A stretch of 64,000 nucleotides of DNA, taken from positions 6,887 through 70,886 of the forward strand of contig DASTWV010000062.1 of assembly GCA_035765775.1 (NCBI GenBank), written 5' to 3'. Under the pieces are notes generated by a model, which did no database searches, was not told the origin of the DNA, and saw only the letters and a program-made list of their open reading frames with translations. The position numbers and the translations under genes are program-made. Below, in pieces: positions 26,766 to 63,950 of the stretch (positions are counted from its first letter, which is position 1; each line of letters opens with the position of its first letter). This DNA is from Actinomycetota bacterium (GTDB lineage: Bacteria; Actinomycetota; CADDZG01; JAHWKV01; JAOPZY01).

Positions 26766-26877
26766 GCTCAAGTTTCAGCCCTCGTATCCGATACTTAGCA
26801 GGTAGCAAGGAAGGGGGGATGCGACTGGGGGACTCTGACCCGGAACCAGCGGCGAGCGTTGCTGGAGCAACACAACC

Positions 26878-27030
26878 AGCGCCTGGACTCGGCCGGCCGG
26901 TAGCACAGCGGCCCCGAGTTGACGAGGAGAGGGATCTCGAAACATTCGGCGGGTGACCTCCGGCTGGCTACGGTCGTAACGGTGCCGACAAACCGTGGGA
27001 GCGATCCCACGTGACAAACCGGCACCGACG
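26878..27030 (+). ncRNA. glmS ribozyme: glmS glucosamine-6-phosphate-activated ribozyme
   Basis: A^GCGCCUGGACU... at 26878-26889 is the cleavage-site consensus AGCGCC. The core GUUGACGAGGAGAGGGAUCUCGAAACAUUCGGCGGGUGACCUCCGG closely matches the Bacillus/Thermoanaerobacter core GUUGACGAGG...AUCGA...UUCGGCGG(A/G)UGAC(U/C)CCCGG. The P4/P4.1 region is cggugccgACAAAccguggga...ucccacgUGACAAAccggcaccg. It ends ~65 nt before the glmS ATG. The boundaries are approximate. Confidence 0.85.
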
Positions 27031-27096
27031 TAGCGCAACTTCGCCGCGCGGACCCACGTGTGCTCTCTTGCGTAGGTAAAGGAGTGTGTCTCCGCT

Positions 27097-28938
<1,842 letters not shown>

Positions 28939-54895: not shown

Positions 54896-55201
54896 GGGGT
54901 TACTCCCCGCCTCGGCTGTGCTCGACTCTGGATCCCTTTTACGGATCATAGGTGAAGTTTGCACCCAGACTCGCACATCAATGGGCATGCGTTTCCATGG
55001 CCTCTTCCAGACCGACACTTCTGCATCGCAGATGATATGAAGTAGGTGGCCGAGCACAGAGGAGAAGGCCGTCGTGGTCCTGAGAAGACCGCCGAAGCCA
55101 GAGGAAAGTGCATCGAACGGTAGAGCCCGCCGGCGGCTCCTCCTGCTCTTGGTGGTAGTGGCTTTGCCCGTCTTTATTGTGTTGCTTACCCGGATTCGTC
55201 C

Positions 55202-56029
55202 CTAAGGTCTTGAGTTCTTCGTTCGAACATTCTGAAGGAGAGATGTCTTGCCCGTGCCATAGCATGCGATTGTCGCATCGCTATTGGATCCTAGGGCGAC
55301 CAAGACGGCTTGCTCCGACGCACTAACGTCGTCAATGGAAATCACTTCTCCGTCGGCCGTTCTGCTCGCGCCGGAAGCATGAGCGGCTCTGCACAGAGGG
55401 TCAGATCCGAAGTCCGCACCTCCTGAGAAAGACACTGTTGCGGTCACTCCGGGAGCCAGATCCAGCTGCAGGGCCTCAGCTGCCGAGACGTGAACCGGCA
55501 CGAACCGTTTTGGGCGGGCTCTCCATGGCAACTACATCGCCCACAGTCAGAATGGTATTTGCTTTTATGGAGCGGATCGAGATTAGCGGCGCTCCCACAA
55601 GACTGATAGGAAGTGGTGAGCTAGGCAGGCGCCGGTCGTACCGACGCTGTACGAAAGATACTTTGAACCCTGAGTAGGCGGGCACGTCATCTCTTGTAAC
55701 CATGTATTCCGCATGGCGGCTGTAAACGAGCGCAAGCCCGAGGATCCAGATGCAGAAACAAGCTATCCCAAACGTGACGCGAAGGCGGGGCCGCCAGCGA
55801 CTTTGGCCATCAGGCGGAGATGATTGCTCCTTGGACAGGCTCGCGCTTTCCCAAGCGGAGTCGACCGAATGGCTAGGCCATATTCCTGCGCTGATCGCAA
55901 CGACATACGATACCCACCGTAGCAGACGGATGCCCCGCCCCACAGCGCACCGGAGAAGAGCAGCGGGTGACCTGCCCAGGCCGCGGCGAGGGAGCAGAGG
56001 GCTACAACCAGGCCCCACGCAGCGATCAT
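55202..56029 (-). pseudogene. disrupted membrane-anchored SAF/CpaB-like gene (at least one frameshift) in a low-GC islet
   Basis: Three overlapping minus-strand ORFs sit in different frames (55763-56029, 55476-56018 and 55202-55531). The middle one has a TM helix (FGIACFCIWILGLALVYS), then a SAF-like stretch (...IRSIKANTILTVGDVVA). The last continues with an RcpC-like pattern (RFVPVHVSAAEALQLDLAPGVTATVS...EQAVLVALGSNSDATI). The similarity is judged by eye only. Confidence 0.35.
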
Positions 56030-56715
56030 AAGCGGGAGTTGATATTGGCTAATGAGTGTCTATCTGTGCCAATATGCCTTCCGGCATGACCATTGTCCCA
56101 GAACACTATGCTGTTCACGCCGTATCTGTGTTCGGGGTAATTCTCCGCGGCATTCAGGATGTTGCCAAGCGAAGTCGGCAGAACCCGCGGGTTCTGTGTA
56201 TCGAAGGCCATATCGAATTGGAACTCAAAGAATGGGATCTTCGGGTATTTCTTAGCCTGGTCGTGCAATTGTTGACGCCGACGCTCCCGTGAGACTACAC
56301 CCGGCACCCGGGCACCCTTACTCCCCTCGTGCGCAATCCATCGGGTCCAAAAATTCCTTAGAAGACCCCCTTCGAAAATCTGCAGGATGAACGTCGCCTG
56401 ACCTAGGACGAGTGACGCTACCAACCACACTATCGCTAGCGACCCCGCGCCGACCAGGCAAAGCCCATTGATACGTGGCGTCCCCACCCGACGGGCGTAT
56501 GTGGTCGCTGTTGCCGCCGGCTGAGCGACAGGAGCGAGCATCTCAGGCTTAAGGTGCGGGTGGGGGAGGACATGGGACTTACTACAAGCTATGGGGCCCG
56601 GATCAAAGAGGTCGAACACCGGAAACAGTATTGGACCACGGGTCGTGGCGCCTGCGGACATACCGTCCAGAGGAGACGGCACCTCGCACGCCAGTGGCGG
56701 CGACACGATAGGCAT
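56026..56715 (-). CDS. hypothetical membrane-anchored protein (low-GC islet)
   Basis: It has one TM (INGLCLVGAGSLAIVWLVASLVLG), then a soluble domain with no motif I recognise. The stop overlaps the next ORF start (ATGA at 56026-56029). The true start may be an internal Met (MSAGAT or MLAPVAQ). Confidence 0.45.
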   Translation of the reverse strand: MPIVSPPLACEVPSPLDGMSAGATTRGPILFPVFDLFDPGPIACSKSHVLPHPHLKPEMLAPVAQPAATATTYARRVGTPRINGLCLVGAGSLAIVWLVASLVLGQATFILQIFEGGLLRNFWTRWIAHEGSKGARVPGVVSRERRRQQLHDQAKKYPKIPFFEFQFDMAFDTQNPRVLPTSLGNILNAAENYPEHRYGVNSIVFWDNGHAGRHIGTDRHSLANINSRL

Positions 56716-56791
56716 CGGGCTTGCGCCACACAGGCATGGGGCGGCTGGCGGGGGTCTGCCAGATGGATTCCGCCAAATGGCGTGCGTGCGC

Positions 56792-58108: not shown

Positions 58109-58127
58109 GGCTTGTGCGACCAGACTA

Positions 58128-58164
58128 CCGGTTACCGCCCCGGTTACCGCTCCGGGTTACCGCC
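58128..58164. repeat. three tandem copies of CCGG(G)TTACCGC(C/T), each with a CGGT-N-ACCG palindromic core
   Basis: The copies lie at 58128-58139, 58140-58151 and 58152-58164. They span the M48 stop codon (58157-58159) and end 20 nt upstream of the dehydrogenase ATG (58108). Confidence 0.8.
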
Positions 58165-59041
58165 CGGTGCCCTCCTGGAGCCGGTCGATGCGCTGCTCGG
58201 CGTAGGGATGGCTGCGCCCCTGCCACCAGGGGGCGGCGACGTCCACCATCTGCCAGTCGGCCAGGGCCTCGATGAGGGCGGGGGCCTGGCCCACCGAGGC
58301 GGCGAAGCGGTCGGCGGCGTACTCCCGGCTGCGCCGGTACGGGATCCAGGCGGGGCGCAGCAGGGCGGGCAGGAGGCCTCCGGACACCGCCAGCAGGCAC
58401 ACCCCTGCGATGCGGGCGGGCAGCCGGACCAGGGCGCCCAGCGGGCCGCGGCCGGCGCCCCCGCCCGGCTGGCGGACCGGCCCGGGCAGTGCCCGCCCGA
58501 TATTGGCCCGGGGCACCCCGGCCCCGGTGCCCAGGAGGGCGAGTCCCAGGCGGGCGATGGAGCGGATCGGCAGCCACCAGGCGGCCAGGGCGATGCGGCC
58601 GTCGCCGGCCCGCAGATGCCCGGCCTCGTGGGCGACCACGGCGTCCAGGTGGGGGCTGGCGAACAGGCCCCGGGTGACGAACAGCGTGGCGCCCAGGACC
58701 CAGGCGTTCTCGTCCGGGCTGTCCACCACCAGGACCGGGCCGGTCGGTAGCCATGCCCGGGAGCGCTCCAGCTCGGCGCGCTCGCGCTCGGAGGGCTGCC
58801 GGGCGCCCAGGGCCGCCCGGTACAGCGGCCCGGCGGGGATGGGCAGCGCCACCGCCGCCAGCGAGCGCACCAGCGGTCCGGCCGCGGCCAGCGCGGCCAG
58901 GGCATCGGTCCACACCCCCAGCGGGGCGAAAAGGCCCAGGACCACGGAGGCCAGCACCAGGCGGAGGAGGGCCGAGGGGATGTCGAGGAGCAGCGAGACA
59001 AGGAGGAGGGCCCACCCGCCTCCCGACGCCCGGCGGATCAC
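58157..59041 (-). CDS. M48 family (HtpX/Ste24-like) membrane zinc metallopeptidase
   Basis: The GTG at 59041 overlaps the upstream stop (GTGA). It has N-terminal TM helices, the HExxH motif AVVAHEAGHL, then SREYAADRFAA...SHPYAEQRIDRL. The rest of the 960-aa track ORF upstream is an out-of-context read-through. Confidence 0.85.
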   Translation of the reverse strand: MIRRASGGGWALLLVSLLLDIPSALLRLVLASVVLGLFAPLGVWTDALAALAAAGPLVRSLAAVALPIPAGPLYRAALGARQPSERERAELERSRAWLPTGPVLVVDSPDENAWVLGATLFVTRGLFASPHLDAVVAHEAGHLRAGDGRIALAAWWLPIRSIARLGLALLGTGAGVPRANIGRALPGPVRQPGGGAGRGPLGALVRLPARIAGVCLLAVSGGLLPALLRPAWIPYRRSREYAADRFAASVGQAPALIEALADWQMVDVAAPWWQGRSHPYAEQRIDRLQEGTGR

Positions 59042-60423
59042 AGGCCGGGCACGGTGGGAGGCGGCGAGGGGATGAAGGTGGCCGGCGCCCGGGGGGCGGC
59101 CCCCGGCGGCGGGGGTGGCGGAGAACCCCCCTCGGCCGGCGCTGCCGGGGCGCCCGGTGGCGGGGGTCCCGGTGGCGGGGGTCCTTGTGCACTGTCCCCC
59201 ACGTCCACCATCGCCACCTGCACCCGGGCCGCCCGCCCGCCGGCGATCACCACCGCTTCGCCCACCGGGAGCTGGCGCACGTCGTTGGGCCGCACCCGCC
59301 AGTCGTCCTTGCGCCGCACGGCCCCCTGGCGCCCGACCTCCGGGCCGGTGCCGGCGTCCAGGTAGCGGGTGTGGTCCACCCGGGACACCGTGCCCGCCCG
59401 GGCGATCAGCGGTTCGGGCTCGGCGCACCGATGCAGGATCAGGGTCTCGGCGGCATCGAGGATGCGGTCCCCCGCCACCCCCAGCCCGGCGTAGCCCTGC
59501 GAGGACACCATCACCGCCGCCCCGAAGGAGCGCAGCCGCTCGAACAGGTGGGCGGCGTCGGTGGTGGACTCCAGGGCGGAGAACTCGTCCACCACCAGCA
59601 GCACGGGGGTGCCCGGCGGCTTGCGCACGCCGGCGTAGTGGGCGAAGTCCTCGAGGAAGAAGCGGCCCAGCCGGGCGGCCTCGGCTTTCAGGGCGAGGCC
59701 CTCCAGGAGCACGTAGCACGCCCGGGTGTCCTCGAAGGCCCAGCCGCCGTCCAGGCCACCCCCCAGCGAGGCGAAGAAAGCCCGGTACCGGTTGGCGACA
59801 CCGGCCACGTCCCGTTCGGCCAGCTCCTCGATCTCGGCGGCCTGTGGGCGGCGCCGGTAGGCCGCGCGGAGCATCGGCTTGCTCAGGCGGCCCAGCAGAT
59901 CCCCGGACGAGCCGGGCACGCCCCCGGGGGAGGTGATGGCCAGGTGGAGGACGCGCAGCGCCATCTCCCGGTAGTAGGGCTCGCTGAAGTCGGAGACCTC
60001 CATGAGGCGGTTGAGCAGCGCCCGGTCCCCACCCCGCCAGCCGTCGTAGGGCTGGGCCGGGAAGGTGCGCAGCGCGGGGGGCGGCACGCCCGCCGCCGCC
60101 ATCGCCCGGGCGAAGCGCGCCTGGGTGGCGGCGTCCCCCTTGGCGTCCAGGAAGACCACCTGCCAGCCGTACACCCGGGCTGCCAGGTAGGCCACCCGCA
60201 GCAGCGTCTCGGTCTTGCCCGAGCCCGCCGAACCCACCACGACGCCGTGGCGGGCCAGGTCCGCCGCCGGGTAGGCCAGCCACAGGCGGTCGGTGCGCCG
60301 CGCCCACTCGGTGAGGTCCCCCGAGGTCATCGCGCCCAGGATGGCGTCGCCCCCGACCACCTCCGGCGCCGTGGTCAACGCCGGGCCGGGCTCGGGCGGC
60401 CGGGCCGGCCGCTTGGGTGTCAC
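59038..60423 (-). CDS. soluble TraD/VirD4-like (type IV coupling protein family) P-loop ATPase with Pro-rich C-terminal tail
   Basis: The GTG at 60423 overlaps the upstream stop (GTGA). It has the Walker A HGVVVGSAGSGKTE, the Walker B PVLLVVDEFSAL and a TraG/TraD C-terminal-like RPNDVRQLPVGEAVVIAGG. No N-terminal TM helices are present. Confidence 0.7.
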   Translation of the reverse strand: MTPKRPARPPEPGPALTTAPEVVGGDAILGAMTSGDLTEWARRTDRLWLAYPAADLARHGVVVGSAGSGKTETLLRVAYLAARVYGWQVVFLDAKGDAATQARFARAMAAAGVPPPALRTFPAQPYDGWRGGDRALLNRLMEVSDFSEPYYREMALRVLHLAITSPGGVPGSSGDLLGRLSKPMLRAAYRRRPQAAEIEELAERDVAGVANRYRAFFASLGGGLDGGWAFEDTRACYVLLEGLALKAEAARLGRFFLEDFAHYAGVRKPPGTPVLLVVDEFSALESTTDAAHLFERLRSFGAAVMVSSQGYAGLGVAGDRILDAAETLILHRCAEPEPLIARAGTVSRVDHTRYLDAGTGPEVGRQGAVRRKDDWRVRPNDVRQLPVGEAVVIAGGRAARVQVAMVDVGDSAQGPPPPGPPPPGAPAAPAEGGSPPPPPPGAAPRAPATFIPSPPPTVPGL

Positions 60424-61070
60424 AGGTCCTCCAGGGCGTAGATCCGCACGAGGTCGCCCAGCTGCGGGGGCACGGTGCAGGCGGCATCGTGGACTGCGGC
60501 CCAGCAATCGGCTGAGGCGAAGTACCAGATCGCCTCGTAGTGGGCCACCAGCGCCTGCATGGCCCGGCGCCGGGCGGTGATGGACTTGGGCGACAGCTCC
60601 ACCTCGATGGCGATGACGTTGCCCCCGGCGTCCAGCAGCTCGCCGTCCGGGATGGGCGAGGCGTCGGCCAGCCGGCGGTCCGGGCGGGTGGCGCGCAGCT
60701 CCCGCTCCGGGCGCCAGCGGGCTCCCGGCCGGCGGGGCTCGATGAATAGCCGCACCCGGTTGACCGCACCCATGTGGCGCACGGTCCACGCCTTCGGTTC
60801 CCAGGGGCCGAAGGGCAACTCGGCGGCCCGAAGCCCCTTGGTGGTGAGCCACACCCACTCCGGCTCGCCCACCAGCAGGCGGGCCCGCCCGGCCAGCGAG
60901 AGGCCCACCCAGCGCCCGACCACCGCCCGGGTGGCGGAGAGTGACAGGGGTTCCCGCCCGCCGATGCGGCCCAGCACCTCGGCGAACTGGTCCAGCCGGC
61001 AGGTGTACTGCTCGCCCACCCAGCGCAATGCCTGCGCATCCCGGGGGGTCAGCCGGAGGGGCGGGTCCAT
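60420..61070 (-). CDS. Replic_Relax-like protein: N-terminal winged-helix plus C-terminal PD-(D/E)xK-like domain
   Basis: It has LTPRDAQALRWVGEQYTCRLDQFAEVL (wHTH-like) and HMGAVNRVRLF...IPDGELLD...VIAIEVELSPKS (D...E-x-E/K nuclease-type motif). This resembles the replication-relaxation family (PF13814) as I recall it. Confidence 0.55.
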   Translation of the reverse strand: MDPPLRLTPRDAQALRWVGEQYTCRLDQFAEVLGRIGGREPLSLSATRAVVGRWVGLSLAGRARLLVGEPEWVWLTTKGLRAAELPFGPWEPKAWTVRHMGAVNRVRLFIEPRRPGARWRPERELRATRPDRRLADASPIPDGELLDAGGNVIAIEVELSPKSITARRRAMQALVAHYEAIWYFASADCWAAVHDAACTVPPQLGDLVRIYALEDL

Positions 61071-61077
61071 GGCAGAA

Positions 61078-61851
61078 CTACTGGCGGGGCTCCCACGTGA
61101 AGAAGCGGGCGGCGACGAGCAGCGCGCCCACGCCCCACGCCGCCACGATGAGCAGGTCCGTGCCCTGGAATCCCGAGCCGGTCTGGAAGGGGTTGAAGGC
61201 GTGCTGCATGGCCCAGCTGAAGTGGTAGATCGGGAAGATCTTGGCCACGGTCGTCAGCCACTTGGGGGCGTTCTGCAGCGGGATGAAGATGTCGGAGATG
61301 AACAGCAGCGGGAAGATCACGGCGTTGACCACCGCCGGAGCGGCGTCGGCATTGGGGACGGCGGCGGTGATGGCCAGGCCCATGGCGCAGAACGACAGGG
61401 CGCCGACGAGCAGGCTGACCAGGAACGCCGGCCAGGTGTGGTGCGGCAGGCTGACGCCGTAGAAGAGCCTGCCGAACACGATGATGATGGCCACCAGCAG
61501 CAGCGACATCAGCCCGGAGTGCAGGATCTTGGCGCTCAGGAAGGCCAGCGGGGGCATCGGCGTGCCCCGCTTGCGTTTCAGCACGCCCTGCTCCCGGGCG
61601 AAGGTCACGTTCATGGCCAGGTTGGTGAACGTGGCCGTGATCACCGAGAAGGCGGCAATCGCGGGCACGTAGAACGTCGATGTGTTCACCCGGTGGCCGA
61701 AATAGCTGATCTTGCCGTGTCCGAACAGCAGGTTGAACAGCACCAGGAACAGCAGCGGGAAGGCGAACGTGAAGAAGGCGGCAGGCGGGTTGCGCCAGAA
61801 GGACTTGTTCTCGTAGCGCACCTGGCGCAGCAGCATGGCGGTGTCGTTCAT
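61078..61851 (-). CDS. ABC-2 type transporter permease
   Basis: The ATG at 61851 (MNDTAMLLRQVRYENKSFWRNP...) overlaps the ATPase stop (ATGA). It has six hydrophobic helices, which is the typical ABC-2/DrrB-like layout. Confidence 0.8.
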   Translation of the reverse strand: MNDTAMLLRQVRYENKSFWRNPPAAFFTFAFPLLFLVLFNLLFGHGKISYFGHRVNTSTFYVPAIAAFSVITATFTNLAMNVTFAREQGVLKRKRGTPMPPLAFLSAKILHSGLMSLLLVAIIIVFGRLFYGVSLPHHTWPAFLVSLLVGALSFCAMGLAITAAVPNADAAPAVVNAVIFPLLFISDIFIPLQNAPKWLTTVAKIFPIYHFSWAMQHAFNPFQTGSGFQGTDLLIVAAWGVGALLVAARFFTWEPRQ

Positions 61852-62801
61852 TCCTTGGTCACCGCCCCGTCGGTGAGCTGCAGGTAGACCTCCTCCAGGG
61901 ATGGCTTCGCCACCGCCAGTTCGGATAGCTCCACGCCGCTGCCGATCGCCCAACCGGTCAGCTCATGCACCGCCCGCATGGCATCGAGGGTCTCGATCTG
62001 GTGTGACCCGTCACTGGCGGGCACCGAGCCGAAGGCCGGAGGTGGCGCCGGCGCCCCAGGCGGCAGGGTGAAGGTGATCCGGGTCATCACCGGGCCGGAC
62101 CCCGCCAAGGTCCTCGGCGGCCCCTCGGCGACGATCCTGCCCGCCACGAGGATCGCCGCCCGGTCGGCCAGCTCCTGAGCCTCGTCCATGTAGTGCGTGG
62201 TCAGCATCACCGTCTTGCCCAGGGCGGCGAGGTTCTTCACCAGCCCCCAGGCGTTGCGCCGGGCCGAGGGGTCGAAGCCGGTGGTGGGCTCGTCCAGGAA
62301 GAGCACCTCCGGGTCGCCCGCCAGGCCCAGGGCGACGTCTAGGCGCCGGCGCTGCCCGCCGGAGAGCTTGTTGACCCGGGAGGCGCGCTTCTCCTGGAGC
62401 CCGACCAGCTCGAGGATCTCCTCGGTGGGTCGGGGCCTCGGGTAGTAGGAGCGGTAGAGCGTGACCGCCTCCTCGACCGTGAGGAAGGGCTCGATGCCGG
62501 TCTCCTGCAGCACGATGCCGATGCGCTCCTTCAGCGCCCGCTGGCGGCGGGCGGGGTCGTAGCCCAGGACCCGGATCTCACCGGCGTCGGCGGTGCGGTA
62601 GCCCTCCAGGATCTCCACGGTGGTGGTCTTGCCGGCACCGTTGGGGCCCAGCATGGCGAAGACCTCGCCCCGGGCCACCTCGAGATCGATGCCGCGCACG
62701 GCCTCGACCGATCCGTAGGACTTCTTCAGGCCTTTGACGCTGATGGCCGGCGACCCGTTTGCCGCCGGGTGGCCTCGTGCGTGGCCGTTTGGATGGCCCA
62801 T
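61848..62801 (-). CDS. ABC transporter ATP-binding protein (DrrA-like)
   Basis: The ATG at 62801 is in frame in track ORF 61848-63005. It has the Walker A GPNGAGKTT, the signature LSGGQRRRL and the Walker B VLFLDEPTTGFD. Confidence 0.9.
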   Translation of the reverse strand: MGHPNGHARGHPAANGSPAISVKGLKKSYGSVEAVRGIDLEVARGEVFAMLGPNGAGKTTTVEILEGYRTADAGEIRVLGYDPARRQRALKERIGIVLQETGIEPFLTVEEAVTLYRSYYPRPRPTEEILELVGLQEKRASRVNKLSGGQRRRLDVALGLAGDPEVLFLDEPTTGFDPSARRNAWGLVKNLAALGKTVMLTTHYMDEAQELADRAAILVAGRIVAEGPPRTLAGSGPVMTRITFTLPPGAPAPPPAFGSVPASDGSHQIETLDAMRAVHELTGWAIGSGVELSELAVAKPSLEEVYLQLTDGAVTKE

Positions 62802-63257: not shown

Positions 63258-63950
63258 TTACAGGTGCCCGCCGCTGAAGGCGTGCATGATCCCGATCACG
63301 GCCGGGCCGGCCACGATCAGCATCAGGGCCGGGAAGATCCCCAGCAACAGGGGGAACAGCAGGGTGACCGGGGTCTTGGCCCCCTGCTCCCGGGCCCGCT
63401 GCCGGCGCAGGGCACGCATCTCGGCGGCCTGGCTGCGCAGCACCAGGGTGAGCGGCGTCCCCAGGGCGTCCGCCTGGGTGATGATCAGGGCGAAGGTGGA
63501 CAGCTCGTCAACCTCCGTCCGCTCCCGCAGGTTGCCGAACGCCTCCCGGCGGGAGACGCCCAGGGCCAGCTCCTGCAGCAGCCGGTGGAACTCATCGCCC
63601 AGCGGGCCGGGCAGGCGCTGGATGACCAGCTCGATGGCGGCCTCGAGGCCCATGCCGGCGCCGACCGCGATGGCCAGCAGGTCCAGGGTTTCGGGCAGCG
63701 TCTTGCGGATCTTGGCCTGCCGGTCCTCCGCCTGGTGGGCAATGATGATGTCCGGGACCATGAAGCCGAAGATCCCGCCCAGCAGGCCCCACAGCAGGAG
63801 CTTGCCCAGGTGGACGCCCAGCAGCGCCATGACCGCTGGTACGCCGAGGGCCATCAGCACCCCGGCGGCGGCCTTCATCGCCAGGATGCCCTCGACGCCG
63901 ATCCCGCCCAGGCCGGCCAGGGCGATGTTGCGCCGCAGCCGGGTGACCAT
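63258..63950 (-). CDS. type II secretion system F family protein (TadB/TadC-like pilus platform protein)
   Basis: It has KIRKTLPETLDLLAIAVGAGMGLEAAIELV...REAFGNLRERT...LSTFALIITQADALGTPL...LRRQRAREQGAKTPVTLLFPLLLGIFPALML, which is a T2SSF domain pattern. Confidence 0.8.
   Translation of the reverse strand: MVTRLRRNIALAGLGGIGVEGILAMKAAAGVLMALGVPAVMALLGVHLGKLLLWGLLGGIFGFMVPDIIIAHQAEDRQAKIRKTLPETLDLLAIAVGAGMGLEAAIELVIQRLPGPLGDEFHRLLQELALGVSRREAFGNLRERTEVDELSTFALIITQADALGTPLTLVLRSQAAEMRALRRQRAREQGAKTPVTLLFPLLLGIFPALMLIVAGPAVIGIMHAFSGGHL

Follow-up and report, generated by a model that had tools for sequence, protein, structure and literature searches.

The stretch of DNA analysed here (hereafter, the window) comprises 64,000 nt of a soil-metagenome contig, DASTWV010000062.1, of an Actinomycetota bacterium with ~71% GC, and its minus strand carries three overlapping genes that are the subject of this report. 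These are p216 (60420-61070), encoding a 216-aa protein with a winged helix-turn-helix (wHTH) and a PD-(D/E)xK domain, a gene for a 461-aa ATPase resembling type IV coupling proteins (T4CPs), with a TrwB/VirD4-like nucleotide-binding domain, an all-alpha domain and no transmembrane domain (TMD) (59038-60423), and a gene for a 294-aa HtpX-like M48 membrane metalloprotease (58157-59041). We consider it probable that this trio is a homologue of the DNA-processing and coupling core of small integrative mobile elements, i.e., of a MOBC-type relaxase-like protein, a T4CP and an M48 protease, which has lost its integrase and is now a constrained fixture of the chromosome. The trio belongs to the known kind of MOBC relaxase with a T4CP and is neither a defence system nor an exporter-coupled machine. 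Its genes are joined by GTGA overlaps between p216 and the ATPase gene (60420-60423) and between the ATPase and M48 genes (59038-59041). A preliminary description, drawn from the letters of the DNA, had listed five minus-strand genes at this locus; their coordinates, junctions and overlaps all hold, and the motifs GSAGSGKT, LLVVDEFSAL, HEAGH and IPDG...IAIEVELSPK are present.

The family assignment of p216 rests on family-wide NCBIfam matches, on its fold and on the position of its gene, and not on direct comparison with hhalign. In the AlphaFold2 model (predicted local distance difference test, pLDDT, 93), the N-terminal half (residues ~9-82) is a winged helix that Foldseek matches to MarR, RosR and ZitR with a probability of 1.0 and a root-mean-square deviation of 2-3 Å over ~80 residues. 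The C-terminal half has the order alpha-beta-beta-beta-alpha-beta, formed by helix 94-113, strands 118-121, 143-146 and 152-158, helix 164-177 and strand 180-185, and its Foldseek matches to SfsA, EcoO109I and YaeQ are weak (E 0.014-0.05). The family alignment shows D142 (minus strand, 60645-60647), E156 and E158 to be invariant and P141 and K162 nearly so (E156/E158/K162 at 60585-60605, minus strand), and the invariant or near-invariant positions H99, E122, P141-D142, E156-V-E158 and K162 fall on the expected elements of the nuclease fold. Nearly all members of the family (22 of 23) match the NCBIfam model NF041423, MobC replication-relaxation, at E<=0.01 with a best value of 5e-13, and seven of the 23 match PF13814 at E<=0.1, all of these matches lying below the curated cutoffs. 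PF13814 corresponds to MobC (PMC5357655), and Replic_Relax was placed in the PD-(D/E)xK superfamily by Steczkiewicz et al. (PMC3424549). The MOBC relaxases TraX of pAD1 and MobC of CloDF13 likewise combine a wHTH with an endonuclease-like domain, and a covalent intermediate with DNA has not been seen for them (PMC12857230). The p216 gene, moreover, occupies the position that bona fide PF13814 genes hold upstream of the orthologous ATPase gene in Chloroflexales. On these grounds p216 is a divergent member of the MobC/Replic_Relax (MOBC relaxase-like) family. Its own branch is large and is not modelled by Pfam, with 3090 clusters at 50% identity, and 475 at E<=1e-30, in an exhaustive profile search; the sole match of p216 in a sequence search of the PDB was spurious.

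The p216 family includes many longer proteins, of 430-940 aa, with two or three wHTH-nuclease modules in tandem (P0183, P0185, P0186, P0188, P0240 and P0277), the catalytic motifs being degenerate in the later copies. The C-terminal repeats of P0185 and P0240 resemble the N-terminal HTH domains of IS5-type transposases.

The second protein of the trio is a T4CP-like ATPase without a TMD, structurally closest to TrwB. Its AlphaFold2 model (pLDDT 88) gave as the top Foldseek match TrwB in the form TrwBΔN70 (1e9s; E 1.2e-12, TM-score ~0.6), aligned over ~400-450 columns that include the all-alpha domain (helices 133-220 in the model). HerA, Cag-beta, DndH-C, SIR2-HerA, DotL and VirB4 followed, and a profile search of the PDB placed DotL first (1.1e-7). 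Pfam returned only weak P-loop matches, among them HerA_C and a marginal TrwB_AAD_bind (21.5 bits against a cutoff of 20.5). The protein had earlier been called TraD-like with a TraG/TraD-C-like end; the coupling-protein likeness and the lack of a membrane segment were borne out, whereas that end has no support in Pfam. Both nucleotide-binding motifs, Walker A GSAGSGKT (aa 64-71; 60211-60234, minus strand) and Walker B LLVVDEFSAL (aa 275-284; 59572-59601, minus strand), are conserved, with G64, G67, G69, K70 and D279 invariant in the alignment and E280 nearly so. Hydropathy analysis found no hydrophobic segment in the window protein that could form a TMD. Its orthologues in Chloroflexales, Thermoleophilaceae and locus L005 possess an N-terminal TMD of ~150-190 aa, and T4CPs deprived of the TMD, e.g., MobB, were non-functional in the systems studied (PMC7431656). 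The C-terminal tail of the window protein (aa ~405-461; 59038-59210) is proline-rich and disordered and ends in FIPSPPPTVPGL. Its last 12 residues, FIPSPPPxVPGL, are conserved in relatives from the same clade (P0011 and P0029) and missing from element-borne homologues, and this terminal motif may be a partner-binding peptide. The ATPase has hundreds of relatives in metagenomes, and a word search gave dozens for p216.

The third protein is an intact HtpX-like membrane protease. It scores 52.1 bits against PF01435 (cutoff 20.3) and lies far under the HtpX equivalog cutoffs of NCBIfam; a single-sequence search of the PDB gave no match, and the best profile match there was Ste24p (2.5e-6). The zinc site consists of HEAGH (aa 138-142; 58616-58630, minus strand) and a third ligand in E240-x-x-A-D244, and H138, E139, H142, E240 and D244 are invariant in the core-genome and the element-borne copies alike. 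Hydropathy indicates about four hydrophobic regions, approximately two of them N-terminal and two central. Thirty loci had enough flanking sequence to be scored, and 15 of them have the coupling-protein TMD without M48, 12 have M48 without the TMD, none has both, and three have neither. In two of these three, L022 and L023, the ATPase was matched over part of its length only, and truncation or decay is possible there; the match in the third, L017, is near full length. Every long ATPase is recognised by a hidden Markov model (HMM) built on the fused TMD. A separate open reading frame (ORF) homologous to the fused TMD (E 6.6e-14) lies between the p216-like gene and a soluble ATPase gene at L029 (7451-7996), L038 (1125-1688) and L045 (1707-2429). 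L008 combines M48 with a single, non-homologous N-terminal helix. The M48-linked ATPases form two groups in a rough neighbour-joining tree. The simplest inference from this pattern is that M48 may supply the membrane attachment of the ATPase, and the strict conservation of its catalytic site makes it likely that a component is processed by it as well. Homology between the N-terminus of M48 and the coupling-protein TMD was considered and ruled out. We found no described M48 partner of a coupling protein.

The comparison covered 24 genome loci, 14 mostly short metagenome loci and nine loci found by protein identity, all scanned with tblastn and custom HMMs. The earlier expectation that the three genes would co-occur beyond this genome was borne out at 12 loci with sufficient flanks from Actinomycetota, Acidimicrobiia and Chloroflexota, and a Replic_Relax-like gene stands directly upstream of the ATPase gene at 34 of the 38 loci that have upstream sequence. 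The trio adjoins a tyrosine recombinase and an HTH_17 excisionase-like gene at L006, L007 and L027 (Acidimicrobiia-type), at L025/L026 and at L037; at L008, from Chloroflexota, an integrase lies downstream and no HTH_17 match was found. The cargo of these elements varies, comprising a type I restriction-modification (R-M) system and ArdC at L025 and GmrSD, an XhoI R-M system and DUF4365 at L027. L005, L018 and L019 combine p216 with an ATPase bearing an N-terminal multi-pass TMD of ~150-190 aa and lack M48; L005 has only the integrase, L018 only the excisionase and L019 both.

In Chloroflexales the gene order is a VirB4-like ATPase of 775 aa, a protein of 218-260 aa, a protein of 316-352 aa above the Pfam Replic_Relax cutoff and the TMD-bearing ATPase. 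This four-gene array, seen at L013 (3057-5384 and 5892-6548) and also at L009, L011, L012, L015 and L016, suggests a conjugation-type system of Chloroflexota whose annotation is poor, and its VirB4-like ATPase has no Pfam match. The Herpetosiphon plasmid pHAU02 has a distant relative of the ATPase next to VirB4 in a similar arrangement, and a Microbacterium plasmid carrying a distant homologue is typed MOBC. A VirB4-like ATPase is linked to the ATPase family only in the Chloroflexales and Herpetosiphon contexts.

These contexts also bear on whether the trio needs a type IV secretion system (T4SS) at all. Single-ATPase conjugation is established in Actinomycetota, where the actinomycete integrative and conjugative elements (AICEs) move DNA with a single TraB translocase, as in Streptomyces. 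The trio could by analogy be a self-sufficient transfer module in which p216 recognises and cleaves a site or initiates replication and the hexameric ATPase, kept at the membrane by M48 or by a TMD of its own, is the sole pump, so that the elements with integrase and excisionase would be conjugative and not mobilizable. The actinobacterial hosts would suit such a mode of transfer, and the genes common to L005, L018, L019, L006 and L027 are limited to those for the integrase, the excisionase, p216 and the ATPase, M48 being present or not, with no further transfer genes inside ±8 kb. We nevertheless judge this explanation unlikely, given that the ATPase is structurally a T4CP of the TrwB/VirD4 type and not of the FtsK/TraB type and that the VirB4-like linkage in Chloroflexales indicates T4SS-dependent ancestry; other transfer genes could, in addition, sit beyond the region covered around the elements.

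The same neighbourhoods speak to the suggestion of the preliminary description that the locus has a defence-like architecture. In such a system a sequence-guided nuclease, a HerA/FtsK-type translocase and a protease serving as effector or regulator would act against or exclude other mobile elements, would travel as cargo of integrative elements and would be kept by the clade for immunity. A nuclease together with an ATPase of the HerA superfamily does resemble known pairs, the Foldseek matches to DndH-C, SIR2-HerA and HerA-DUF4297 reaching E 1e-9 to 1e-8. The ATPase matches the PADLOC model mad8 at 1e-14, a result that is robust in low-GC homologues, and matches HerA weakly; the element-borne trios adjoin R-M and GmrSD cargo. 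The mad8 profile is generic, however, and is also matched by the ABC transporter ATPase encoded near the trio, and neither p216 nor M48 has a PADLOC match, whether in the window copy or in the two distant trios scanned. In the elements it is the trio that forms the invariant core right after the integrase and excisionase genes, whereas the defence genes vary, and the best structural match of the ATPase is a coupling protein whose partner comes from a relaxase family. Assignment to a MADS system through mad8 was rejected, as the model is generic, the ABC ATPase matches it too and no other Mad components were found; the MADS HMMs of PADLOC-DB 2.0 were built from heterogeneous HHpred/PDB hits. 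A role in defence or exclusion is thus improbable, and we keep it as a minority explanation because long chromosomal retention under purifying selection in a clade without the integrase requires some benefit to the host.

The copy in the window has a status of its own. Its close relatives (L001-L004, L030-L032, L035 and L036; ~55-85% identity) form a clade that is monophyletic in a rough neighbour-joining tree of the ATPase, and all three ORFs of the trio are intact in every member. The clade shares the gene order tad pilus genes, ABC, ABC-2, trio, ugd, mdh, icd, folD, purH, purN and sucDC, and this core synteny recurs without an integrase in at least eight contigs at 55-85% identity. Measured against the closest relative, which is 85-91% identical, the ratio of nonsynonymous to synonymous substitution rates (dN/dS) comes to 0.11 in p216, 0.24 in the ATPase gene and 0.19 in the M48 gene; at greater distances the trio evolves at rates similar to those found for ABC, permease and ugd. 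All five genes from the ABC ATPase to M48 have a strong coding signature, with a GC content at third codon positions (GC3) of 0.92-0.97. The claim that the locus shows no composition shift is correct for GC3, which in the trio (0.94-0.95) is the same as in the neighbours and therefore native, and fails for total GC, which reaches 74-78% in the trio against ~66-71% in the flanks, a difference that arises at the first and second codon positions, i.e., from amino-acid composition; a low-GC insertion at 54.9-56.8 kb is a further departure from uniformity. Each of the three genes is partly covered by root-metatranscriptome contigs of 97-99% identity, one of which bridges the junction of p216 and the ATPase gene. 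The absence of an integrase, the core synteny, the native GC3, the dN/dS of 0.11-0.24 and the monophyly together indicate that the trio in the window is fixed, vertically inherited and constrained, as opposed to an active element or a pseudogenised relic.

A decaying and functionless remnant of an integrated element would also be expected to have no integrase, excisionase, oriT or T4SS nearby, as is the case here. We regard this explanation as very improbable in view of the clade-wide intact ORFs, the invariant catalytic motifs, the low dN/dS, the retained translational coupling and the presence of the sequences in metatranscriptomes. The proposal of an ancient conjugative module, domesticated and surviving as a remnant, agrees with the data, as the same trio stands beside an integrase and an excisionase elsewhere.

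We hypothesize the following course of events for a trio derived from the core of a mobile element. The N-terminal winged helix of p216 would recognise a specific DNA site, and its PD-(D/E)xK domain, with D142, E156, E158 and K162, would cut or nick the DNA. A hexameric, TrwB-like ATPase could then take up the nucleoprotein and pump the DNA. The N-terminal membrane domain on which T4CPs depend would have been lost from this ATPase subfamily, and the co-translated M48 would probably tether the ATPase to the membrane and probably also process a component. In the soil Actinomycetota clade, the module has on this reading lost both integrase and excisionase, occupies a conserved core-genome position and is inherited vertically under purifying selection. 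A bolder proposal, which we offer tentatively and hold to be rather doubtful, is that in one T4CP branch the N-terminal TMD was replaced by a separate, active HtpX-like M48 that would both tether and regulate the pump, for instance by cutting the relaxase or the proline-rich tail of the pump, and that the soil clade has domesticated this unit for a host function distinct from element transfer, which might be the export or uptake of DNA close to the Tad pilus locus or the exclusion of incoming elements.

Several observations weigh against the derivation of the trio from the core of a mobile element or against parts of it. All Foldseek E-values for the nuclease half of p216 exceed 0.007. The protein has no Pfam match even at E=10, and so none to Replic_Relax, and against NF041423 it scores 1.4e-4 and 21 bits, below the curated threshold of 200. 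Its alignment by hhalign with the Replic_Relax proteins of Chloroflexales is full-length and brings the motifs into register, and is not significant (probability 2.4%, E 0.019). The wHTH/nuclease fold that the preliminary description gave for p216 is supported by the AlphaFold2 and Foldseek results; its label Replic_Relax-like did not follow plainly from standard searches, Pfam giving no match and NCBIfam a weak one to MobC. No T4SS, VirB4 or integrase gene was found in the window or in the ±10-kb flanks of the relatives, and classical transfer would thus have no visible partner. As had been claimed, the window contains no tRNA, integrase or VirB4 gene, and it contains no excisionase gene either, according to tRNA searches and, for the protein genes, tblastn and custom HMMs. 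The relatives lie on contigs of 83-116 kb, where the ±10 kb around the trio hold housekeeping genes, and no T4SS or integrative and conjugative element was found around the locus in this clade within that range. No oriT-like conserved repeat was detected, the repeat search giving pairs at chance level and one variable tandem repeat. The metatranscriptome contigs are of low depth and may include DNA carry-over. The putative anchoring role of M48 is drawn from mutual exclusivity among phylogenetically related loci, and at L028 an ATPase without a TMD is found with no M48 and is followed by a 98-aa protein with a single transmembrane segment.

Upstream of the trio lie the genes for a DrrA-like ABC transporter ATPase (61848-62801, minus strand; Pfam ABC_tran, NCBIfam drrA 1e-70) and a DrrB-like ABC-2 permease (61078-61851, minus strand; Pfam ABC2_membrane), which overlap by ATGA at 61848-61851; p216 starts 7 nt past the permease stop. 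The preliminary description took all five genes for one unit, an export-linked machine of exporter, nuclease, ATPase and protease. Same-strand gaps of 7-50 nt between the permease stop and the p216 start, in L004, L031 and the window, are compatible with co-transcription. At L001-L003 and L030 (~70% identical), however, an opposite-strand gene of the major facilitator superfamily (MFS; 413-416 aa) intervenes between the permease gene and p216, and the ABC pair accompanies the trio at no locus outside the clade, including all element-borne trios. The pair is an ordinary exporter of the DrrAB type, and a five-gene machine is hardly credible. Because the MFS gene intervenes and no ABC genes are found outside the clade, the ABC pair is a neighbour, and the trio is a cassette that stays constant where the region around it varies; the exporter is an unrelated host neighbour that is co-oriented and abutting by chance here. 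Variation extends downstream, where a DUF2269 or NUDIX gene follows the trio at some loci of the clade only. We found no sigma-70-like promoters, and terminator-like sites occurred only at chance level.

Other features of the window were recorded in passing. A gene of the TadB/TadC type (T2SSF) is located at 63258-63950 on the minus strand, and in the relatives a full tad/Flp pilus locus (CpaE, CpaF, TadB, TadC and Flp) lies directly upstream of the ABC pair, its adjacency to the trio being kept within the clade. The 48-nt spacer between M48 and ugd contains a short tandem repeat of ~3 copies of (G)GGCGGTAACC (58125-58165, with no strand assigned), which begins at the M48 stop codon. In one soil DNA run the array is longer by an 11-nt copy, and L032, the closest relative, carries a different tandem repeat in its place; the repeat varies in copy number and is probably not functional. 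Just downstream of the trio, between ugd and mdh, a stretch of ~1.9 kb (54900-56790) has a low GC content (58-60% against ~71%) and no GC3 coding signal; its ORFs have no Pfam match, and no Rfam family or tRNA was detected in it. It is missing in L002, where the gap is ~100 nt, and is shorter in L003 (~830 nt), and it resembles an insertion, specific to this lineage, of DNA that is foreign or non-coding. A glmS ribozyme/riboswitch (Rfam RF00234, 85 bits) is situated at 26867-27037 on the plus strand, upstream of the ORF at 27076-28938.

These findings have consequences beyond a single locus. As Pfam does not model the p216 family, many small integrative elements in Actinomycetota and Chloroflexota will escape standard screens for relaxases and T4CPs. 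The complementarity of M48 and the TMD poses the question of whether a membrane protease can replace the anchor of a coupling protein and whether proteolysis regulates coupling. A chromosomally fixed trio under purifying selection is, furthermore, a candidate case of the domestication of a conjugation module.

Set against known systems, the trio shares with the HerA-nuclease defence pairs (SIR2-HerA, HerA-DUF4297 and DndFGH) and with mad8 of MADS the pairing of an FtsK-HerA superfamily ATPase with a nuclease-fold protein, and differs from them in that the best match of its ATPase is a T4CP and not HerA, that the other components of those systems are absent and that the mad8 match is generic. 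Its protease has the HExxH...ExxAD zinc site of HtpX and Ste24, with hydrophobic segments flanking the catalytic domain and an above-cutoff score for Pfam M48, yet remains far under the HtpX equivalog cutoffs and is genetically and translationally coupled to a T4CP. The ATPase has the fold of TrwB of R388, VirD4, Cag-beta and DotL, with a nucleotide-binding domain, an all-alpha domain and Walker A and B motifs, and is set apart from them by the lack of an N-terminal TMD, an identity of ~15% and a proline-rich tail with a clade-specific end. Integrative mobilizable elements, which carry a relaxase with or without a T4CP, are resembled by the trios of Acidimicrobiia, Chloroflexota and other metagenomic loci that have a tyrosine recombinase and an HTH_17 excisionase as direct neighbours and differ in their cargo, whereas the window copy has no integration genes and resides in conserved core synteny. 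The modules of a MOBC relaxase and a T4CP, to which pAD1 TraX and CloDF13 MobC/MobB belong, differ from the trio in four respects: p216 scores far under the MobC/Replic_Relax thresholds; its T4CP has no TMD, which MobB needs (PMC7431656); the M48 protease is an obligatory third gene; and the trio is chromosomally fixed with no integrase, oriT or helper T4SS in view. Common to both is a small protein (~220-260 aa) of wHTH and PD-(D/E)xK domains encoded beside a VirD4/TrwB-type ATPase on mobilizable or integrative elements, and CloDF13 pairs MobC with a T4CP of its own, MobB (PMC12857230, PMC7431656). The closest known system is thus the CloDF13-type mobilization module of a MOBC relaxase and its own T4CP, carried by integrative mobilizable elements.

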